From the NCBI GenBank assembly GCA_964633445.1, contig CAZWFW010000001.1, positions 6,339 through 70,338 on the forward strand: a stretch of DNA of 64,000 nucleotides. Direction: 5' to 3'. The DNA is from Candidatus Undinarchaeota archaeon (lineage in GTDB: Archaea; Undinarchaeota; CAZWFW01). The notes beneath the pieces were generated by a model, which saw only the letters and a program-made list of their open reading frames with translations, ran no database searches and had not been told where the DNA came from. Positions 5,999 through 62,777 of the stretch are shown here, piece after piece. Numbering within the stretch: the first letter of the stretch is position 1; each line of letters starts with the position of its first letter. The position numbers were made by a program, and so were the translations under genes.

Positions 5999-8275
5999 AT
6001 GAAAAACCGCAAAAAAGCAGTCAAAATAATAATTAGGGGAGTTGTTCAAGGCATAGGTTTTAGACCCTTCATTTTCAGAATTGCCAACTCGCTTAATGTT
6101 AAAGGATATGTTAAAAATGTGAAGGGTGGTGTGGAAGTTTATGCTGAAGCCTCTCAAAAGATTTTAGATAGTTTTTTAAATGAAATAATGAGTAAAAAGC
6201 CACCTTTATGCAAAATTGATGAAATCGAAATTAAGAATGTGTCTCTCGCCAATTTCAAGTCTTTTACTATAGAAAAAAGTGGTTTTGAAGATGAACCAGA
6301 GATGGTAATCCCTCCTGATATTGCTATCTGCAATGAATGTGTTAAGGAGCTACGCGATAAAGAAAATAGAAGATTTGGATATTTTTTCATAACATGCACT
6401 TCTTGTGGGCCAAGGTATACCATAATTGAGGATTTGCCTTTCGATAGAAAGAATACCACATTAAAATGTTTTAAATTATGTAAGGAATGTCTTAGGGAAT
6501 ACCTAGATCCCAAGAATAGGAGGTTTCATGCCCAGACAATTGCTTGCGGTAAATGCGGACCAAAGCTGTTTTTGAAAAGTAGCGGTAAGGTTTTGCGTAA
6601 TAATGTTATTAAAAAAGTTGCAAAATTACTGAGTAATGAAGAAGTTGTTGCAATTAAGGGTTTAGGAGGGTATCATCTAGCTGTTAGGGCTGATAGCAAT
6701 TTTGCGGTGCTAAATTTAAGGAAATCACTGAGAAGATCGCAAAAGCCTTTTGCTGTAATGTGTAAGGATGTTAAAACTGCAAAAACGTTTGCAGTAATTA
6801 ACGAAAGTGAGAGAAGGTTGCTAGAATCTTGGCAGAGACCAATAGTTGTTTTGAGAAAAAGCAGTGATTATTGGTTAAGCAAATATGTAGCACCAGGACT
6901 TGATACAATAGGGGTTTTTCTGCCATATACAGCTTTACATTACCTCTTATTTGACCACATAGATTTTCCAATAATCCTAACATCTGCGAATTATCCTAAC
7001 GAGCCTATTGCTAAAGACGAAAATGAAGTAGAGACGTTTGGTTTTGTTGAGCATATTCTTTACTACAATAGAAGAATAGCTAACAGATGCGATGATTCAG
7101 TCGTTAGGATCGTTGCAAATGAAAAAGTCTTTTTGAGAAAAGCAAGAGGTTATGCACCCTGCACGATGAAGTTGATTGGTGTTGACAAGAAAATTCTAAG
7201 TTTGGGCGCGGAACTCAATGTAACCTTTTCAATTTATAAGTATGGCAAGTGTATAACCTCACCGCATATAGGAGACGTTGATAATGAAGCTTGCTTAACA
7301 CATTTGAAGCAAACTTTGTTTAAATTTCTTAGAATGTTAAAAGTCAAACCTGAGATAGTTGTCTGTGACTTACATCCAGGATATCTAACAAGCTCTTTGG
7401 CTGAGGATCTAGCAAGCAAATTTAAGGCAAAGTTAGTTAAAGTTCAGCATCACGAAGCGCATGCATTTTCATTAATGGCTGAAAAAGGGATTAATAATAT
7501 TGTTTGCATTGTTTGCGACGGTTTAGGCTATGGTAATGATGGCAATATATGGGGTGGTGAGGTCTTTGCAATTAAGGGTAAAGAAGTTATAAGAGCTGGT
7601 AGGCTCGAGTACCAACCAATGCCTGGTGGAGAGCTTACAATAAAGTATCCTTTAAGGATGGCTGCAGGAATACTATTCAAAATTTTTGGGGATGATGCTA
7701 AGAGAATCTTAGCTAAATATGAAAACAAATTCAGATATGGTAGAAAGGAAATCACCGCAATTTTAAATCAAGTTATAAATAAGATAAATACTCCTTATAC
7801 AAGTAGCACTGGTAGAATTCTTGATGCGATTTCTGCATTGCTGGGCGTGTGTTATGAAAGAACTTATGAGGGGGAACCAGCAATGAAACTTGAAGCCATT
7901 GCTAAAGGAAGAGATTTGGGTTTTAACTTTAACATTAAAAAAGAAGACAATGCCCATGTTTTAATAACATCTTCAATTATTGAGGAGGTTGCTAATACCA
8001 TCAATCAAAAAAATGCAAAGGATGTAGCATTATCAGCTCATCTAGCATTAGCTAGAGGTTTATTTGAAATTGCTAGGAGAGTATGCAAAAAATATGATAT
8101 TGATAAGATTGGTTTTACTGGAGGCGTCGCTTACAACACTATAATATCTAGCGAGCTCAAAAGACTTTGCAATGAAGAAAATTTTGAGCTTTACTTACAA
8201 ACAAAATATCCTTGTGGAGATGGGGGGATATCCTTAGGTCAAATTTATAGAACATTGTTCTTTAAGGAAATATAA
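5999..8275 (+). CDS. hypF: [NiFe]-hydrogenase maturation carbamoyltransferase HypF
   Basis: Acylphosphatase-like N-terminus (VKIIIRGVVQGIGFRPFI), two paired CxxC zinc-finger motifs (CNEC...CTSCGPRYT; CKEC...CGKCGPK), YrdC-like AIKGLGGYHLAV and a Kae1-like C-terminus. 758 aa is the typical length. Confidence 0.97.
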   Translation: MKNRKKAVKIIIRGVVQGIGFRPFIFRIANSLNVKGYVKNVKGGVEVYAEASQKILDSFLNEIMSKKPPLCKIDEIEIKNVSLANFKSFTIEKSGFEDEPEMVIPPDIAICNECVKELRDKENRRFGYFFITCTSCGPRYTIIEDLPFDRKNTTLKCFKLCKECLREYLDPKNRRFHAQTIACGKCGPKLFLKSSGKVLRNNVIKKVAKLLSNEEVVAIKGLGGYHLAVRADSNFAVLNLRKSLRRSQKPFAVMCKDVKTAKTFAVINESERRLLESWQRPIVVLRKSSDYWLSKYVAPGLDTIGVFLPYTALHYLLFDHIDFPIILTSANYPNEPIAKDENEVETFGFVEHILYYNRRIANRCDDSVVRIVANEKVFLRKARGYAPCTMKLIGVDKKILSLGAELNVTFSIYKYGKCITSPHIGDVDNEACLTHLKQTLFKFLRMLKVKPEIVVCDLHPGYLTSSLAEDLASKFKAKLVKVQHHEAHAFSLMAEKGINNIVCIVCDGLGYGNDGNIWGGEVFAIKGKEVIRAGRLEYQPMPGGELTIKYPLRMAAGILFKIFGDDAKRILAKYENKFRYGRKEITAILNQVINKINTPYTSSTGRILDAISALLGVCYERTYEGEPAMKLEAIAKGRDLGFNFNIKKEDNAHVLITSSIIEEVANTINQKNAKDVALSAHLALARGLFEIARRVCKKYDIDKIGFTGGVAYNTIISSELKRLCNEENFELYLQTKYPCGDGGISLGQIYRTLFFKEI

Positions 8276-8380: not shown

Positions 8381-8561
8381 AAATTTTCTACTGTGTTGCA
8401 TGATTCATGCAAAACGGTAGCATAAGCCCTTAAAACTCTAAATAAGCATTATAATTGCTTCCTCAGAGCTCACATCAGAAAGAGCTCGCATACCTCAGAT
8501 TGCCAAAAGAAGGAAGAGATAACGGTTTTTTTAAATAATTGTGCAACACAGTACAAATTTT
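8381..8561. repeat. 181-bp non-coding element bounded by ~20-bp imperfect inverted repeats (MITE-like)
   Basis: aaattttctactgtgttgca (8381-8400) versus tgcaacacagtacaaatttt (8542-8561). The 12-nt core is a perfect inverted repeat and 18/20 match overall. An internal palindrome ttgcatgaTtcatgcaa is present. The core recurs at 63975-63987. Confidence 0.35.
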
Positions 8562-30119: not shown

Positions 30120-31481
30120 ATGGTGGGTATACAAGAGATCCCAGAGGATGTTAGAGAATTGGAAAGAGTTGCTGCACATAGCCACATTAAGGGCTTGGGA
30201 TTAGAAGGCTTGAAGGCAAAATTTATTGCTGATGGATTTGTTGGGCAAGAAGAGGCAAGAGAAGCTGCAGGTATAATTGTTAGGCTTATAAAAGCTGGTA
30301 GATTTGGTGGAAGAGCGATATTGATCGCTGGACCACCTGGCACAGGTAAGACTGCAATTGCTGTGGGTATAGCAAGGGAGCTTGGTAAAGACGTTCCGTT
30401 TGTTCCTTTAACCGCAAGCGAAATATACTCTGCTGAAGTTAAGAAAACGGAATTTTTGACACAAACACTAAGAAAGGCTATTGGTGTTAGAATAAGGGAA
30501 TTAAGGAAAGTTTATGAGGGTGAAGTAGTTGAGCTTAATATTGAGCGCAAACCCCATCCCTATAATCCATATTTTCAGATTCCTGTAGCTGCAACAGTTA
30601 AGCTTGAGACTAAGGATGAATCAAAACGTTTGAGCGTTGATCAGAATTTCGCAATGCAATTGATGCAGCAGGGTGTTAATGAAGGGGATGTTATACAAAT
30701 AGATGTTGATGGCGGGCGATTAATAAGACTTGGACCAAGTGAGAGAATAGCTAATAAACTCAAGGATATAACTACTGAAAAGCCAGTTCCTCTGCCAGTA
30801 GGTAAAGTACTTAAAGAAAAGGAATTTGTTTATGTGCTTAGCTTACATCAGCTTGATATGATGCGTGCTAGAAGTGAGGTTGACATATTTGGCTTGCTTT
30901 TTGGTTCAACAAGAAAGGAGGTTGATTCCGAGGTAAGGAGAGAGGTAGATGAACTTGTAAAAGAGATGGTTGAAAAAGGTAAAGCTGAGCTTGTACCAGG
31001 GGTAATATTTATTGATGAATGCTCACTGCTTGATATTGAAACGTATGCATTTCTTAACAGAGCGTTGGAGCAAGAATTAAGTCCAATAATAATATTTGCT
31101 ACAAATAGAGGAACCGCAAGAATTAGGGGCACTGATCAGGTTTCCCCTCATGCAATGCCGCTTGATTTGCTTGATAGAGTTCTGATAATTACCACAAGAC
31201 CGTATAATGAGGAGGAGATAAGAGAGATAATAAAGATAAGAGCTAAGGCAGAAAAAATTGGAATTGATGAGCAGGCATTGGAATTATTAACGAAACTTGG
31301 AGTTGAGCGTTCCTTGCGTTATGCTTTGCAATTACTTGCGCCAGCTTATGAAGTTGCTAAGGAAGAAGGTAAGGAAAAAGTTTGTAAAGAACATGTTGAA
31401 GCTGTTGCTAAGCTATTTGTTGATGTTAAGAAATCATCTAAATACTTAAAGAAGATGGAGGAAAAATTGCTTAGTTACTAA
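30120..31481 (+). CDS. TIP49/RuvB-like (RuvBL1/2 homologue) AAA+ ATPase
   Basis: HSHIKGLGL, Walker A GPPGTGKTAIA, an inserted OB-like domain II (about aa 125-235) and Walker B VIFIDECSLLD. 453 aa, collinear with eukaryotic pontin/reptin. Confidence 0.92.
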   Translation: MVGIQEIPEDVRELERVAAHSHIKGLGLEGLKAKFIADGFVGQEEAREAAGIIVRLIKAGRFGGRAILIAGPPGTGKTAIAVGIARELGKDVPFVPLTASEIYSAEVKKTEFLTQTLRKAIGVRIRELRKVYEGEVVELNIERKPHPYNPYFQIPVAATVKLETKDESKRLSVDQNFAMQLMQQGVNEGDVIQIDVDGGRLIRLGPSERIANKLKDITTEKPVPLPVGKVLKEKEFVYVLSLHQLDMMRARSEVDIFGLLFGSTRKEVDSEVRREVDELVKEMVEKGKAELVPGVIFIDECSLLDIETYAFLNRALEQELSPIIIFATNRGTARIRGTDQVSPHAMPLDLLDRVLIITTRPYNEEEIREIIKIRAKAEKIGIDEQALELLTKLGVERSLRYALQLLAPAYEVAKEEGKEKVCKEHVEAVAKLFVDVKKSSKYLKKMEEKLLSY

Positions 31482-32597: not shown

Positions 32598-33089
32598 TCA
32601 AATAACTTTACCACCTTGATACCTACCATTGTATTTCTCAGCTTTTCCTTCAACTTTTTCAAAAACAATTTGAGCAATTTTGGCAAACCTTTTAACTCTA
32701 AATTCGTAATTTGAAAAATTCTTAATACCAAAAGTTAATGCGCCTTTATAACCAGGATCTACTAATGCTGTAAAAATATAAACTCCGCATCTAAAAAGCG
32801 TAGATCTTGGTAAAATTCTTGCAATTAAGTTACTTGGAATATTAACCTTTTCAACAGTTTTTACAAGATAATACTCATTTGGTTTAATTACATAAACATC
32901 CCCACAAATCTCTTCAACTTCTGGAAGCTTTCTTGAATTAATTCCAAGTCTAGCATCACTTTTTATCTTATACAGAACATCAAGTCTCAAATCATAGCCT
33001 GCTCCTTGCAAATTTTCTTTCTTAAAATTCTCTATTAAAGGAGGGTTTTCCGCAACTAACTTTTCAATTTCACTTTTTGCAAGTATCAT
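32598..33089 (-). CDS. dUTPase/dCTP deaminase-family protein (Dut-like)
   Basis: 163 aa. LQGAGYDLRL, LVDPGYKG and the overall size match archaeal trimeric dUTPase/Dcd-family proteins. Confidence 0.8.
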   Translation of the reverse strand: MILAKSEIEKLVAENPPLIENFKKENLQGAGYDLRLDVLYKIKSDARLGINSRKLPEVEEICGDVYVIKPNEYYLVKTVEKVNIPSNLIARILPRSTLFRCGVYIFTALVDPGYKGALTFGIKNFSNYEFRVKRFAKIAQIVFEKVEGKAEKYNGRYQGGKVI

Positions 33090-33110
33090 ATAGTTATTTT
33101 AGGTTTTTTG

Positions 33111-33368
33111 AAAAATTTATCTTCATGTTGTTTGCAAGACCCAATGCGTAAGCGTGGGGATACGCAATGGGAGGCGGGTGGGAAATATTTAAATACTTTG
33201 AAGTTGTATAAACAGTAATCTCGCAACAGCCGTTAAGGCCGGACAGCCCGTGAGGATAACGGGTAGTGGCCTCGTGAACAGGCCTGTGAGGATAAGGGTG
33301 GTAGAAATCCACCAAACTCCTCACGAAGCTCCTTTCGTAAGGGAGGGGCAGTTTACAGCCCTGTTTTT
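33111..33368 (-). ncRNA. G+C-rich structured island 1 (candidate ncRNA or cis-regulatory leader; strand tentative)
   Basis: 36/60 G+C in 33241-33300 versus 17/60 in 33421-33480. Hairpins at 33140-33171, 33268-33284 and 33286-33324. Shares blocks with islands 2 and 3. Oligo-T is present on either strand (33364-33368 on plus; 33111-33115 on minus). The track ORF 33094-33372 is probably spurious. Confidence 0.5.
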
Positions 33369-34004
33369 CCAATATTTCTTGAGAAGCTCTCCAGAAGCAT
33401 ATGCACTAAGAAGTGCGAAAAGTGAAAAATTAACTCTTCTTTCAAAGCTGCCAATTAATTTCACTTCTACAAATTCCTTTCTTTCAAAAGCTTTGACAAG
33501 AATTCTACAAACCTTTCTATTGTTTAAATAACCCTCCAAATAAATAAACTCGTTTTTTAAAATTTTTATAGTGTAGGATGTTTTTTTGATTTTACCCATT
33601 AAAAATCTAAATTCGCTATTCTTTATCAAAAGTTTTGCGAATTGTTTTCTTAGTGAAAGCAATATCGGATTTCCACTCCCACCAAATTCCAAAATAACGT
33701 CCTTTAAAGACTTTTTAGTAGTAAGAATTATTTTACCCTCCAGATATACAGGTATCGAAAAAAGTAGATAATAGGAGGTAGAAACAGCATCCAGCCAGAT
33801 CTCGTAATAACAATGTTTACAGAATAGAAAAAGTGAAAATGAAGATAGAAAATATCCAGGGGAATGAGGAATACCATTTTTAATGAAAGGGAATATTAGA
33901 GCATAGATACATGAATGCAACAAAAATAGATATGTTGCTAAAAATAGTTTAAGCAAACCAAAAATTATAAACAGAGAATCGAGAAGATAAATCAAACTTA
34001 CCAA
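33321..34004 (-). CDS. Hypothetical membrane protein (C-terminal ~16 codons overlap island 1)
   Basis: 227-aa ORF with a hydrophobic N-terminal half and no recognisable motif. It overlaps the 63-aa ORF 33949-34140 in another frame, so this could be two genes or one frameshifted gene. Confidence 0.4.
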   Translation of the reverse strand: MVSLIYLLDSLFIIFGLLKLFLATYLFLLHSCIYALIFPFIKNGIPHSPGYFLSSFSLFLFCKHCYYEIWLDAVSTSYYLLFSIPVYLEGKIILTTKKSLKDVILEFGGSGNPILLSLRKQFAKLLIKNSEFRFLMGKIKKTSYTIKILKNEFIYLEGYLNNRKVCRILVKAFERKEFVEVKLIGSFERRVNFSLFALLSAYASGELLKKYWKNRAVNCPSLTKGAS

Positions 34005-34140
34005 TAAAAGTGCAAAAGTAGCATAAAGGTATTTTTAAAATAATTTCTCTTAATTCAAAAATTAATAAATAAAATGTTAAATAGTAAAAGCTTAAGTATA
34101 TGCCCAATAGGAAAATCTTGTAAATTTTGCTGAAGTTCAT
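33949..34140 (-). CDS. Possible small membrane protein
   Basis: 63-aa hydrophobic ORF starting 11 nt after the recJ-like stop. Very AT-rich. Weak support. Confidence 0.25.
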   Translation of the reverse strand: MNFSKIYKIFLLGIYLSFYYLTFYLLIFELREIILKIPLCYFCTFIGKFDLSSRFSVYNFWFA

Positions 34141-58800: not shown

Positions 58801-61278
58801 ATGCTAAAGATGATAAGTGCAAACGCCATTCCCAAAATATTTAAGGGAAAACTTGGTGTTGTTATAGTTGTGGTATTTTTAGTAATTTTAGTTGGTCTCT
58901 TAATTCACCATACAACTGTCTCGAATGTCTCTAACGCATCCTCAACTGAGGAGGTAGGTCAGGAAACGCCGTCTCCTGAATCATCTCCCGAAATAACTAA
59001 AGAAATTGAGGAGGAAATTAAGAAAGAGGAAGAACTTGAGGAGTCTGACAAAAGCCCTCCAGAGATTTTTGTGAAGTTATCTAAGGAAAAGGTTAAAAAA
59101 GGAGATACTGTTGACATTGAGGTTACAGCAAGAGACGAGTCTGGAGTTGCTAGTGTTGTTGCGGAGGTTGAAACTGAGGGAACCTTCAATTTACAACTTG
59201 CTGAGGGTAGTGAATATAGTGGTATATGGAGGGCCTCATTTGTCATTGTTTCCGATTTGGAGAAGGATAAGAAGTATAAGATAGTTATTAAAGCATTTGA
59301 TAGAAGAGGAAATTTGGCCGTAAAAACTTTGGAATACTACGATCCAGTTACCAAAATTGTGATACCTAGAGCTGATGATGATATGAACTATCAAACCCAG
59401 GACTCAGATTGTTCATCGAATCCTGAATATAAATATTATACTTGCAGCAATTGCGATGAAAATGATATTCCTGGTTGGTATATGCTTAGCTATGATGATT
59501 CCTCATGGCCAACGGGCTACGCACCTTTTGGTCAACCTGCTTGGGGAGAATGCACTCAAGCCTTAACTTCAGCTCCAGATGATTTGTTTGTAAGGAAGTG
59601 GTTCTTTATTCCTGGCACTCCTCAAGGCGCTACATTAAGATTGAGTTATGATGATGGGATTAAATGCTACATTAATGAGAATGTTGTAATTAATGTTATA
59701 AGCGAAGCTCATGGCCCTTCATATTGGAATAGGCAAGTTACTATATCTAGCTCTGTTTTGAAGTCTGGCCAAAATCTTTTAACTTGTTGGGTTGCTAATG
59801 GTGGTGAGAATAGTGGCAGTGGAGGAGGCTGGCTTGATTTAGAGCTAGAAGTTACTTATGAACCTATATATATAACGAATGTTACAGTTGAAACAGATAA
59901 ACAAGCCTACGATCCTGGTGATGACGTCAACATAACTGTTACAGTCTTCTCGGACTCCACAAGACTAAGCAACGTTCCCGTTACCATAAAGATCTATGAT
60001 CCAGACGAAAAAATTGTTTTAGATAAACAAGCGGTAACTGATAACAACGGTGAAGTGAAACTCACATATACTTTACCTGTCGATGCGAAGTGGGGTGTTT
60101 ACGTAATTAATGCTACTGCTGAAATGGAAAATACATTCAGCACAATTAAAAAATTTGGTGTTGGTCCAGCTGTTGATATATTTGACATAAAAACAACTCC
60201 TCAAAAGGTTAAGGCACCTGCTAATGTTACAATAACTGCAGACATTTCAAATATAGGTAGCATGAACCTTAGCAATTTGGTTGTTGAAACAAAGATTATT
60301 GGAGGGTCATGGTTTGATGCTTCGTGGAATTACAGAGTACCTATAACAATAACCGAGCAAAGTGGGAATGTTTTGACAGACTATCAAGTTCTGGTTACTT
60401 TAGATACCGCTTCTTTGATTTCAGCAGGGAAAATGCGAAGTGATTGCGGAGATATAAGGTTTGCTGACTCAAATGGAAATACATTAAGCTATTGGATAGA
60501 GTCTGGTTGTGGTTCAGCTAATACAAAAATCTGGATAAAAGTTCCAGAGATTATGGCTAATAAGAATACAACAATTTATGTTTACTATGGGAATCCTAAC
60601 GCAGAAAGTATGAGTAATGGAAATGATGTATTTTTAGACTATGAAGAAACACTTTACTGTCAAGGTTCAACTGCTTCAGGGGGATGTTATGTAACGTTCT
60701 CTCTTTCTAATGAAAAATTTGCTCCTTATCAATCTTCAGGCTATGGTGTATTAGATTGGAAAATGGCTGGAGACTTTAATTCCGGAGGAAGTTATTCATC
60801 CTCGGGCTGTAGCTGTGTCTCAGAAAGCTATGAAAGAGCAAGATTATGTGCAGATTCAACTACTTGTTCAGATACTCATCCAAATTGTCTTGGATGCTAC
60901 TCAACTGGATATCAAGATTGTACGCTGCGCTCTCCTTCTGGCTTCCCAAAGGATGTTAGCAGCTATATAATAGATAAAACTTCTGTGTCTTTTGCAACAG
61001 ACACTACGAATGAAGTAAACTATAATCCTGGCTGTGGTTATTATTACAAATTTGAGTTTCATTTGAAAGCTAAAACTCGCAAGTATGTCTCTCCAGAACC
61101 AACAACAAGTGTAGGTGATGAGGAAACTTTAAGCTCTGTAATACTGGCATCACTTTCAAAAACAATCTCAAGCTTAGCAGTAGGCCAAACAATAAATGAT
61201 TTCCAATTAGGTAAAGTAGATGTTGACTGCTGGGATGTAGGGAATTATAACATAGTCATAACCGTTAAGCAAGGATGA
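58801..61278 (+). CDS. Large secreted/anchored protein with CARDB/MG-like modules and a DUF2341-like domain
   Basis: N-terminal TM. Modules of the type TDKQAYDPGDDVNITVTV. WNYRVPITITE...LTDYQVLVTLD...CGDIRFADSNGNTLSYWIE...KIWIKVPEI...TIYVYYGNPNA matches the DUF2341 pattern. Confidence 0.72.
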   Translation: MLKMISANAIPKIFKGKLGVVIVVVFLVILVGLLIHHTTVSNVSNASSTEEVGQETPSPESSPEITKEIEEEIKKEEELEESDKSPPEIFVKLSKEKVKKGDTVDIEVTARDESGVASVVAEVETEGTFNLQLAEGSEYSGIWRASFVIVSDLEKDKKYKIVIKAFDRRGNLAVKTLEYYDPVTKIVIPRADDDMNYQTQDSDCSSNPEYKYYTCSNCDENDIPGWYMLSYDDSSWPTGYAPFGQPAWGECTQALTSAPDDLFVRKWFFIPGTPQGATLRLSYDDGIKCYINENVVINVISEAHGPSYWNRQVTISSSVLKSGQNLLTCWVANGGENSGSGGGWLDLELEVTYEPIYITNVTVETDKQAYDPGDDVNITVTVFSDSTRLSNVPVTIKIYDPDEKIVLDKQAVTDNNGEVKLTYTLPVDAKWGVYVINATAEMENTFSTIKKFGVGPAVDIFDIKTTPQKVKAPANVTITADISNIGSMNLSNLVVETKIIGGSWFDASWNYRVPITITEQSGNVLTDYQVLVTLDTASLISAGKMRSDCGDIRFADSNGNTLSYWIESGCGSANTKIWIKVPEIMANKNTTIYVYYGNPNAESMSNGNDVFLDYEETLYCQGSTASGGCYVTFSLSNEKFAPYQSSGYGVLDWKMAGDFNSGGSYSSSGCSCVSESYERARLCADSTTCSDTHPNCLGCYSTGYQDCTLRSPSGFPKDVSSYIIDKTSVSFATDTTNEVNYNPGCGYYYKFEFHLKAKTRKYVSPEPTTSVGDEETLSSVILASLSKTISSLAVGQTINDFQLGKVDVDCWDVGNYNIVITVKQG

Positions 61279-62309
61279 AGAATTTAAAGCTAATTATTAT
61301 AGCTTTACTATTTTTACTCTTTGCTGAAAATTCTTTTTCACAAACAATTTATGGAAAGGCTAAGTCAGAATTATGCATAATTTATTCTTGTATTCCTGAG
61401 AACTTCACTTATGCTCAAGCTCTGCAGGAAATGAGAATAATCTATTCATGTATACCTAAAAATTTCACTTATACAGAAACTTCTGGAAAATTTAGGGTAA
61501 TCTATTCATGTATACCTAAAAATTTCACTTATACACAAATTTCTGGAAAAATGAGGGTAATTTATTCTTGCATACCACCTAATTTTATTTATCAAAGTTA
61601 CGAATTCGAAGGTTTTGAAATAAATGAAACCTGCCCACCCCAGCCAGCTGATCTGAAAATTCTAGACTATGATATTATTCCATTGTCAAGCCCCTTGGAG
61701 TCATTACAGAAATTCAGGCTCGAGGTTCTTGTCACATCAAACACAACGTGCTATGCAACTCTACTATTTAAGGATTACTCCACGTCTTTTTATATTCGTG
61801 CAAATGAAACAAAGGAGCTAGCAATTTATTTCGATGAAAATGTAAGTACAGAAAGCTTAACAAGGAAAATAGAAATAAGCTATCCACTTGAAGTTAATGA
61901 AAGCGATAATAAAAAAACAATAGTTCTTTACGTTCAGAACCCACCTAACGTTTTGAAAGCAAACGAAACATATGATTTTTCAGCCTCTGAGGGTAAGATA
62001 ATCGCAAGTGTTGATCTGAAATCTAGTGATGTTTGGACATGGATTGAGATTGAAGAAAACGATGATGCGAGGGGAATGAGTATAAAAAAGATTGTTAGGC
62101 AGGATGGAAAAGTTATTGAGAGATGGTTTAGAATAGGAAACAAGGTATACATTTTTGACGATCCATCAACCTACATCGTATACTATGTGAAACCATATCT
62201 GCCTGTAGTTGCCTATGAAACTAGCTTATTCATAGCAGTTCTAATTTCACTGGCAATAGGGATAATTGTTAGTTTGAGAACGGTTAGACGAAGTAAGATA
62301 GGAAGTTAA
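61275..62309 (+). CDS. Secreted protein with four 20-aa IYSCIPxNFTY repeats and C-terminal TM anchor
   Basis: Signal peptide (IIIALLFLLFAENSFS|Q), repeats at aa 34-113 and C-terminal TM LFIAVLISLAIGIIVSL followed by RTVRRSK. ATGA overlap with the upstream gene. Confidence 0.7.
   Translation: MKNLKLIIIALLFLLFAENSFSQTIYGKAKSELCIIYSCIPENFTYAQALQEMRIIYSCIPKNFTYTETSGKFRVIYSCIPKNFTYTQISGKMRVIYSCIPPNFIYQSYEFEGFEINETCPPQPADLKILDYDIIPLSSPLESLQKFRLEVLVTSNTTCYATLLFKDYSTSFYIRANETKELAIYFDENVSTESLTRKIEISYPLEVNESDNKKTIVLYVQNPPNVLKANETYDFSASEGKIIASVDLKSSDVWTWIEIEENDDARGMSIKKIVRQDGKVIERWFRIGNKVYIFDDPSTYIVYYVKPYLPVVAYETSLFIAVLISLAIGIIVSLRTVRRSKIGS
61374..61613 (+). repeat. 4 x 60-nt in-frame tandem repeat
   Basis: Copies 2 and 3 are nearly identical (taatctattcatgtatacctaaaaatttcacttataca...). 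The peptide units are C/R-[IV]IYSCIP[EKP]NF[TI]Y plus a 7-aa spacer. Confidence 0.9.
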
Positions 62310-62317
62310 GTATTAAG

Positions 62318-62493
62318 GTCTGTGAACTACCCACCGTTTTTAATGGGTGGCTTCCCCCAGATAAACACCACCACGGCTGGGGTCGGGCTGTTCACGAGCC
62401 CCGATGCCACCCATCAAAGGTATTTAAATATTTCCCACCTCCTCCCTAATTCACCCACCGATTGAAATCAGGGGTACTCTTAGCGACATTTTT
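62318..62493 (+). ncRNA. G+C-rich structured island 3 (candidate ncRNA or leader of hypC; strand tentative)
   Basis: Hairpin gggct-gttcacg-agccc (62385-62401). Long-range stem 62343-62351/62406-62414. A 33-nt block (62414-62446) is shared with island 1 in inverted orientation. T5 at 62489-62493. Confidence 0.45.
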
Positions 62494-62570
62494 ATGGAAA
62501 TATTTATACTCTGCAAGACATTATTTTAACCTCTCAAATTTAGAAATACAGGGAAGTCAATGAAAAATTT

Positions 62571-62777
62571 ATGTGCTTAGGTGTGCCTGGTAAAGTGATT
62601 AAAATAATTGGCGATGAGGGTATAGTGGATTTTGGAGGTGTTAAAAGGAGAGTTGTGTTGGCTTTGCTGAAGGATTTAAAGGAAGGAGACTATGTTGTTG
62701 TTCATGCTGGTTTTGCGATTGAGAAAATTAATATGCAAGAGGTTAGAAAGCTAAAAGAAATACTTGAAAAATTTTGA
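62571..62777 (+). CDS. hypC: [NiFe]-hydrogenase maturation chaperone HypC/HupF
   Basis: MCLGVPGKVIKI... has the essential N-terminal Cys2 and OB-fold pattern. 68 aa. Confidence 0.92.
   Translation: MCLGVPGKVIKIIGDEGIVDFGGVKRRVVLALLKDLKEGDYVVVHAGFAIEKINMQEVRKLKEILEKF

Follow-up and report, generated by a model that had tools for sequence, protein, structure and literature searches.

Palindrome-associated transposable elements (PATEs), known from the archaeon Haloquadratum, are IS605-type transposons that have lost their core (PMC3119063), and according to Meers et al. such elements 'often encode omegaRNAs', which are necessarily used in trans by TnpB (10.1101/2023.03.14.532601). In the solved structure of the ISDra2 omegaRNA, nucleotides -6 to -2 pair with nucleotides -102 to -106 (PMC10097598), and sense overlapping transcripts (sotRNAs) are described (PMC4615843) as non-coding RNAs from the 3' end of IS1341-type archaeal tnpB genes. 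Here we describe two GC-rich islands in a 64-kb stretch of contig CAZWFW010000001.1 from a Candidatus Undinarchaeota archaeon (the whole stretch is called the window below). They almost certainly derive from TnpB elements, and they are very probably gene-less, PATE-like non-autonomous IS200/IS605 elements of the tnpB-only (IS1341) type which have kept their ends, a promoter and an omegaRNA scaffold. Island 1 (33121-33356, 236 bp, sense strand plus) and island 3 (62322-62493, 172 bp, sense strand minus) are numbered as in an earlier, sequence-only reading of the same DNA, and each consists of a left end, a putative promoter, a predicted omegaRNA scaffold and a right end. With the described PATEs they share the lack of genes, subterminal palindromes at both ends, the absence of terminal inverted repeats and, as far as the flanks show, of target duplications, and core deletion; unlike them, they come from an uncultured thermophilic archaeon of 35% GC, carry a sharply conserved block, made up of a TFB-recognition element (BRE) and a TATA box, fused to the scaffold, and go back to two TnpB lineages with a protein identity of 23.5%.

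The window as a whole has ~35% G+C, and its only long non-tRNA stretches at 63-67% G+C are 33121-33325 and 62322-62431, the first of which begins precisely at the predicted left-end border of island 1. The sequence-only reading had drawn attention to them through a 33-nt block common to both and a hairpin in which one base pair is swapped. Both blocks are present, at 33169-33201 and 62414-62446, and differ by indels and substitutions only; the 20 nt that they share exactly, GTATTTAAATATTTCCCACC, occur twice in the window, at 33177-33196 on the minus strand and at 62420-62439 on the plus strand, and still only at the two elements when up to three mismatches are allowed, at which tolerance none of 100 dinucleotide shuffles of the window gave any match. 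The block is thus not, within the window, a common sequence upstream of unrelated genes. The hairpins, GGCCU-GUUCACG-AGGCC (33268-33284, minus strand) and GGGCU-GUUCACG-AGCCC (62385-62401, plus strand), are also as reported, the third pair being C-G in one and G-C in the other. Their 11-nt core CTGTTCACGAG is found at these two places only, and taken alone it is weakly significant, as two or more matches at up to one mismatch arose in 8 of 100 shuffles.

Relatives were sought, as the sequence-only reading had suggested, with the block and with a covariance model, and homologous loci were recovered in metagenome-assembled genomes of Alkanophaga and in metagenomes. For the block, a 19-mer (GGTGGGAAATATTTAAATA) served as the query with which one genome per prokaryotic species was scanned, followed by blastn on the loci retrieved; L-numbers denote loci or contigs from genomes and metagenomes, mostly fetched through this 19-mer. 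The scan returned two loci each from Ca. Alkanophaga liquidiphilum (L007 and L011) and Ca. A. volatiphilum (L009 and L017), and the AT-rich bacteria that also matched are chance hits unrelated to the element.

It is the collinear homology with full-length tnpB elements that identifies the islands. By blastn, L007 4323-4412 corresponds to window 33116-33219 and L007 5569-5683 to window 33248-33359, and likewise L011 4391-4481 corresponds to window 62508-62417 and L011 5645-5741 to window 62415-62320. Identities between the island halves and these flanks are 77-88%: the tnpB 3' end and right end of L007 match island 1 at 77%, those of L011 (5645-5741) match island 3 at 88%, and the L011 left end matches that of island 3 at 83%. 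The ~1.2 kb lying between the two halves in L007 and L011 is an open reading frame (ORF) of 408-419 aa which carries the Pfam domains Cas12f1-like_TNB and OrfB_IS605 and is therefore TnpB. Among full-length elements, L052 is closer to island 1: its positions 1386-1478 correspond to window 33108-33198 (81%) and positions 2687-2783 to window 33263-33356 (79%), with tnpB at 1501-2778 in between. Against the ~1.2 kb of the full-length elements, the halves stand 64 bp apart in island 1, when aligned to L052, and are directly adjacent in island 3.

Traces of the lost gene persist in both islands. Island 1 keeps ~38 C-terminal codons of TnpB (33238-33348, plus strand), which tblastn matches to residues 382-419 of the L007 protein at 63% identity (E 4e-7); the translation, ...GSGLVNRPVRIRVVEIHQTPHEAPFVREG, agrees with the TnpB C-termini of the homologues, and the stop codon TAG has become CAG. 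In island 3 the remnant of the last ~20-25 codons (62341-62413, minus strand) is weak, with matches to residues 384-408 of the L011 TnpB of 65% over 20 aa (E 0.004) and 48% over 25 aa (E 3.4). Homologues of the L007 TnpB, 60-87% identical, are found in Thermococcus, Geoglobus and Alkanophaga, and among them is a Thermococcus sibiricus protein named ISTsi2 orfB in its source; the remnant and the RNA of island 1 belong to this ISTsi2-like lineage, from which island 1 differs in having only those ~38 codons with their mutated stop.

The ends of the islands have the architecture of IS200/IS605 transposons: subterminal palindromes, no terminal inverted repeats in an inverted-repeat analysis of the elements, and no target duplication in the flanks of either, the exact borders being those suggested by homology. 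The left end of island 1 (33121-33168) is 81% identical to that of L052 and aligns with those of L007 and L034. It contains a subterminal palindrome (33140-33159 or 33140-33171), and within its inverted repeat (33140-33150/33161-33171) the 3' half is an 85% direct repeat of the right-end hairpin at 33336-33348. Correspondingly, the left end of island 3 (62447-62493, minus strand, AAAAAUGUCGCUAAGAG...), with a palindrome at 62454-62474, is 83% identical to the L011 left end, aligns with those of L009, L017, L038 and L045, and is an 81% direct repeat of the right-end hairpin region 62329-62344. Just outside the left end stands TTAT in island 1 (33117-33120), with the homology to L007, L034 and L052 starting right after it, and CCAT in island 3 (62494-62497, minus strand), in the position taken by TTAT, TTAC or CTAT in relatives; one of these four motifs precedes the left end in all 16 of the copies inspected. 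Right ends terminate in TCAC, TTAC or TGAC. These motifs probably correspond to the transposon-adjacent motif (TAM) and the transposon-encoded motif (TEM), respectively. In island 1 the right-end border lies at GUUUAC (33351-33356), with its TEM-like TTAC, and homology to L007 and L052 ends 0-2 nt beyond; in island 3 it lies at GUUCAC (62322-62327, minus strand). From these borders the empty sites are predicted to read, on the sense strand, ...GAAAAATTTAT joined to AGCCCTGTTTTTCC... for island 1 and ...AAATATTTCCAT joined to AGACCTTAATAC... for island 3.

The 33-nt block lies between the left end and the scaffold. In island 1 it starts with a G-tract, GGGAGGCGGGTGGG (33169-33182), followed by a BRE-like GGGAAA (33180-33185), which flanks the TATA box on the side expected for a promoter facing tnpB, and by the TATA box itself, TTTAAATA (33188-33195), which fits the archaeal consensus; in island 3 it runs in the sense direction on the minus strand as GGGAGGAGGUGGG, BRE and TATA box (62421-62428). 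In archaeal promoters a TATA box lies ~22-27 nt ahead of the start site and is itself directly preceded by a purine-rich BRE. The distance from the end of the TATA box to the tnpB ATG is 20 nt in L011, 25 nt in L007, 25 nt in L052 (whose block is a variant) and 33 nt in L038, a spacing of 20-33 nt that is expected of leaderless or near-leaderless archaeal mRNAs, and the purine-rich GGGAAA lies on the BRE side for transcription toward tnpB. Judged by position and consensus, then, the block is a putative BRE/TATA promoter of the transposon directed toward tnpB, and from the spacing and the side on which GGGAAA lies it would face away from dcd and hypC. Transcription would start at ~33217 in island 1 (~22 +/- 3 nt beyond the TATA box) and at ~62399 in island 3, at or just inside the first hairpin.

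This orientation is opposite to that proposed in the sequence-only reading, according to which the block promoter fires toward dcd and hypC through a shared leader, with a T5 attenuator ahead of the gene. The genes and oligo-T runs are indeed where that reading had them (a dCTP deaminase/dUTPase-like gene at 32598-33089 and HypC at 62571-62777), the two elements are oriented alike with respect to the gene downstream, the TATA core TATTTAAATA is palindromic, and CAAAG(G) occupies the BRE position for that direction. What makes the proposal very improbable is that every full-length relative has the block before tnpB, on the other strand and with leaderless-type spacing, and that GGGAAA, on the tnpB side, is the better BRE match. 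The 'leader' is a transposon left end, which differs between the islands outside the block; the T-runs, which are complementary to the A-rich start of that left end where it abuts TTAT or CCAT, are not an attenuator. Read on the sense strand, the GC-rich stretch supposed to precede the block is the predicted transcribed product. Moreover, hypC has a box of its own, TATTTATA (62503-62510), nearer and ~60 nt from its ATG, and in other genomes the element adjoins unrelated genes, such as a different 180-aa ORF in L007, and insertion sites are not conserved. The promoter-like character of the block thus stands, and its assignment to dcd and hypC does not; because the TATA core is palindromic, weak divergent transcription toward these genes is nonetheless conceivable. 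The octamer TTTAAATA, which the same reading had singled out, is present in the block as quoted but is not special, with 19 occurrences found against 17 expected, and is therefore a generic archaeal TATA box. The 19-mer itself precedes the ATG of an ordinary protein gene by ~37 nt in Methanomethylicota (L013 1998-2016, L028 and L042), with transposon features absent around it, and the block core may simply be a near-optimal or strong generic archaeal BRE/TATA.

Downstream of the block, both islands encode homologous structured RNA scaffolds, and to this extent the suggestion of a paralogous RNA family was right; the RNA lies on the opposite strand from the one considered, and it is a TnpB omegaRNA rather than a free-standing cellular RNA. 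Twelve scaffolds were aligned and folded with RNAalifold, a covariance model was built on them, and covariation was counted over 20 distinct sequences. RNAalifold recovered the hairpin of the sequence-only reading and a terminal hairpin, each with compensatory changes. In the window the covariance model finds two sites only, 33261-33358 on the plus strand (67 bits, E 1.6e-14) and 62320-62408 on the minus strand (56 bits, E 1.1e-11), and it finds many extra copies in Alkanophaga-type loci. Cells predicted to be paired are so in 94.6% of cases versus 80.9% in shuffles, none of 500 of which reached the observed value, and sliding the partners by 1-3 columns lowers the figure to 38-58%. Across two helices and the pseudoknot described below, 10 of 17 pairs show changes on both sides, including 4 of the 5 in the stem of the first hairpin and 4 of the 6 in the terminal hairpin; the single pair swap noted in the sequence-only reading is one instance of this real covariation.

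The pseudoknot, spotted by eye, joins the loop of the first hairpin, GUGANC, to GNUCAC at the 3' end of the scaffold and is 97% paired. Two of its positions covary, one with GC 13 times, CG 3 times and GU twice, the other with AU 7 times, GC 4 times and CG twice, and since this helix is absent from the model these counts are independent of the alignment procedure. In one scaffold subfamily of the Alkanophaga-type loci the pseudoknot is GUCAAC/GUUGAC in place of GUGAAC/GUUCAC. The scaffold resembles the ISDra2 omegaRNA in extending over the 3' end of tnpB and the right end, in having several stems, and in having a 5'-proximal loop pseudoknotted just upstream of the guide, a placement also reminiscent of TnpB/Cas12 guide RNAs; it differs in that the pseudoknot has 6 bp (GUGANC/GNUCAC) and lies in a 7-8-nt loop, and in that the scaffold appears to have its own promoter, instead of being processed from tnpB mRNA. 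In L007, L011 and L052 the scaffold homology covers the last ~80-110 nt of tnpB and ~10-20 nt beyond. The sotRNAs were described within intact haloarchaeal tnpB genes, whereas the islands have lost the gene, which brings the tnpB promoter next to the RNA.

In island 1 the predicted scaffold (33217-33356) ends at the right-end border and, besides matching the covariance model, is 79% identical to L052 and 77% to L007. The pseudoknot hairpin GGCCU-CGUGAAC-AGGCC (33268-33284) carries in its loop the 5' strand of the pseudoknot, of which GUGAAC pairs with the GUUUAC at 33351-33356. It is followed by a central stem-loop (33286-33324), an inverted repeat GUGAGGA...UCCUCAC with an inner GGUGG/CCACC that appears in both the minimum free energy and the centroid fold and is conserved in L007 and L052, and by the right-end hairpin CUCCUUUCGUAAGGGAG (33329-33345), which is homologous to the left-end palindrome. 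The predicted minimal scaffold of island 3 (62322-62399, minus strand), likewise found by the covariance model and 88% identical to the L011 segment, has an identical copy in metagenome contig L025. Its pseudoknot hairpin, GGGCU-CGUGAAC-AGCCC (62385-62401), forms an inverted repeat with 62322-62332 and again holds the 5' strand of the pseudoknot in the loop, which pairs with GUUCAC at the right-end border; a central stem CCCCAG...CUGGGG (62355-62382) is present in the predicted fold and conserved in L011, and the right-end hairpin is CCACC-CAUUAAAAAC-GGUGG (62331-62350). On the same sense strand 62403-62418 pairs with 62339-62354 (16 nt, 88% complementary; UUUGAUGGGUGGCAUC with GAAGCCACCCAUUAAA), in competition with the right-end hairpin, and a shorter version of this pairing is seen in L011. 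The 5' arm may be a relic of a longer scaffold made from a full-length tnpB mRNA.

Other kinds of RNA were considered. Rfam offered no family for the islands, either at gathering thresholds over the whole window or at E <=10 over the islands, the best match being at ~E 3. A tRNA fragment, split half, T-arm or anticodon arm was rejected, the loop fitting neither consensus and ARAGORN and Rfam placing three normal tRNAs elsewhere in the window; a C/D-box or H/ACA sRNA, for which inspection revealed no proper box motifs, was dropped once the link to tnpB appeared. Thermodynamic z-scores were not decisive for the choice of strand: the sense fold of island 1 (-58.3 kcal/mol) has z -4.2 against -3.0 for the antisense, and that of island 3 has z -0.3 against -1.3.

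If the RNA extends past the right end, as TnpB omegaRNAs do, its guide would be the flanking DNA: AGCCCUGUUUUUCCAAUAUU for island 1 (33357-33376, plus strand), which is antisense to the 3' end of ORF 33321-34004 and has only chance-level second matches in the window at up to three mismatches, and AGACCUUAAUACUUAACUUC for island 3 (62302-62321, minus strand), where the homology to L011 stops, which runs antisense to ORF 61275-62309 around its stop codon and is unique in the window. That both guides are antisense to the 3' ends of adjacent ORFs, together with a promoter fused directly to a minimal scaffold, invites comparison with the TnpB-derived RNA-guided repressors known from the literature, and one might suppose that the host keeps the units as domesticated guide RNA genes which steer a TnpB or a nuclease-dead repressor to neighbouring genes, in the manner of the TnpB-like nuclease-dead repressors (TldR). 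We consider this highly unlikely. The guide is the mere right-end flank, as in any IS200/IS605 insertion, full transposon ends and the target motif have been retained, the window holds no TnpB-like gene nearby, and insertion sites shift from genome to genome.

How the islands arose, and what they may do, can be pictured as follows. Deletion of the tnpB core would have joined the left end and promoter directly to the omegaRNA scaffold and right end, so that the block, in full elements the presumed promoter of a leaderless or near-leaderless tnpB mRNA, would now transcribe the scaffold and, as a guide, ~16-20 nt of the adjoining DNA. The resulting RNA could be loaded by a TnpB encoded elsewhere, which would cut the site wherever it is 'empty' and so favour retention of the element, and TnpA (the Y1 transposase) acting in trans could mobilise the element through the palindromes at its ends. 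That the islands are still expressed and used in trans in this way, rather than being decaying relics, we put forward tentatively, as somewhat less than an even chance.

The competing view that they are inert relics, internally deleted TnpB transposons that are not transcribed as guides and no longer move, whose block and hairpin persist because the deletion is recent, is a serious one to which we would give nearly even weight. Several observations speak for decay and against use in trans. No partner is at hand: tblastn with the L007 and L011 proteins finds no intact tnpB in the window beyond the C-terminal remnants, no tnpA turned up there, although no search was aimed at it, and neither gene was found on any of the low-GC contigs that carry the block. 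Another TnpB from the same metagenome (Ga0190367), P0035, was considered as a partner and set aside, its contig having 29% GC and its element a different left end, so that the search for a partner ended without an assignment. A T5 run in island 1, which could terminate archaeal transcription, starts 8 nt into the would-be guide, the left-end palindrome contains a mismatch and the pseudoknot a G.U pair, all compatible with decay; in island 3 the terminal hairpin is weaker than the 8-bp version of L011, the predicted start falls awkwardly, on the edge of the first hairpin's 5' arm or within it, and the arm 62403-62418, being upstream of that start, would stay untranscribed. The window has a single copy of each subfamily, and in the related tnpB-less copies L039, L009:7561, L043:5264 and L027:8649 either the promoter is degenerate or the pseudoknot loop is disrupted. 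The near-invariance of the block among the collected loci is partly by construction, as they were fetched with the 19-mer, and copies found by structure only carry degenerate versions of it. The covariation may have been inherited from different full-length parents and so does not prove selection after tnpB loss, and the wobble evidence for the strand is modest (20 G.U versus 8 A.C cells; 94.6% paired in sense versus 90.7% in antisense), the proposed sense orientation resting mainly on tnpB.

On the other side, both islands, like at least six other tnpB-less loci from different organisms, have an undamaged promoter core of identical sequence, and the pseudoknot and all three helices can still pair in both islands. 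A single tnpB-less architecture is seen twice in the L009 contig (~2012 and ~7561) and again at a third site in L045, which implies that it has spread by transposition since the loss of tnpB. Three independent assemblies (an ENA k141 contig and the Logan assemblies of SRR7051321 and SRR7051322) break off inside island 1, all of them in a 10-bp stretch (33290-33299) that closely follows the pseudoknot hairpin on the sense (plus) strand, which suggests that additional near-identical copies exist or that strains vary at this element.

Among the loci that carry the block, three have tnpB (L007, which is the same as L021, L011 and L038) and eight distinct ones do not: the two in the window, L009 (with variants L039 and L043), L045, L017 (the same as L044), L027, L030 (the same as L032) and L034. 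That tnpB-less loci outnumber tnpB-containing ones by 8 to 3 would accord with a bolder and rather doubtful proposal, namely that thermophilic archaea harbour a class of 'guide-only' parasites, each a strong and near-invariant promoter fused to a minimal omegaRNA, which would exploit the TnpB and TnpA of others and spread between distant lineages. Alkanophaga-type loci hold several additional omegaRNA-like scaffolds per 8-14 kb (for example L009 5621-5712, L043 7055-7147 and L021 51-143), and such genomes seem to be densely populated with these elements. In L034, on a contig of 37% GC, a tnpB-less element at ~6391-6720 lies between two near-identical copies of ~50 nt (gggagaaatgataggggagaaacgggatagaaaagaaaaagtggta[a/t]tattt) and its insertion site is thus within a tandem duplication of host sequence or between the two duplicates.

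The organism of the window is not Alkanophaga. G+C content is 35% in the window and ~51% in the Alkanophaga loci, and the RecJ/GAN protein of the window is at most ~50% identical to its named homologues (Hadarchaeota, MSBL1). By blastn, the window and the Alkanophaga loci have no nucleotide similarity beyond the elements, and because the similarity is confined to these, horizontal transfer of the elements is suggested.

The gene disposition around island 1 adds a few observations. ORF 33321-34004 (minus strand, 227 aa), upstream of the island, has no homologue among 5.8 billion proteins. Its last ~12 codons (VNCPSLTKGAS*) are the antisense of the transposon right end, and when the element is removed in silico the ORF would end ...RAINFSKNLK*; either the C-terminus of a real orphan gene was rewritten by the insertion, or the ORF does not represent a gene. 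One metagenome annotation places a 92-aa 'gene' across island 1 and a 113-aa gene at the locus of this ORF. A different kind of mobile element, unrelated to those derived from TnpB, is a miniature inverted-repeat transposable element (MITE) of 165 bp at 8389-8553, with terminal inverted repeats (ACTGTGTTGCA...TGCAACACAGT). A copy of it, 94.5% identical, is found in metagenome contig L001 (1867-2030) at the position that matches window 34049-34057, where the alignments of its flanks overlap by 9 bp, as they would with a 9-bp target duplication; as the window has no MITE copy at 34049-34057, the insertion is polymorphic between strains. Elsewhere, at 30120-31481 (plus strand), a TIP49/RuvB-like AAA+ protein (Pfam TIP49 and TIP49_C) is encoded beside a Holliday-junction endonuclease-like gene.

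PATEs that carry omegaRNAs are already known, and the islands are further members of that group. What is modestly new is their occurrence in a thermophilic archaeon, the promoter block common to two TnpB lineages that are only 23.5% identical, and the direct fusion of promoter to scaffold. For annotation, two unannotated GC-rich islands are explained which would otherwise be taken for novel small RNAs, for leaders of dcd and hypC or for short ORFs. Natural minimal scaffolds of ~80 and ~140 nt, with a pseudoknot supported by covariation, become available for thermophilic TnpB systems, and archaeal mini-elements composed of a promoter and an omegaRNA, with no nuclease gene, are added to transposon biology. 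That the same block accompanies two TnpB lineages so unlike each other, and is found in archaeal groups that are only distantly related, suggests that modules have been exchanged between these transposons, and that the elements may have passed horizontally, within hydrothermal communities.

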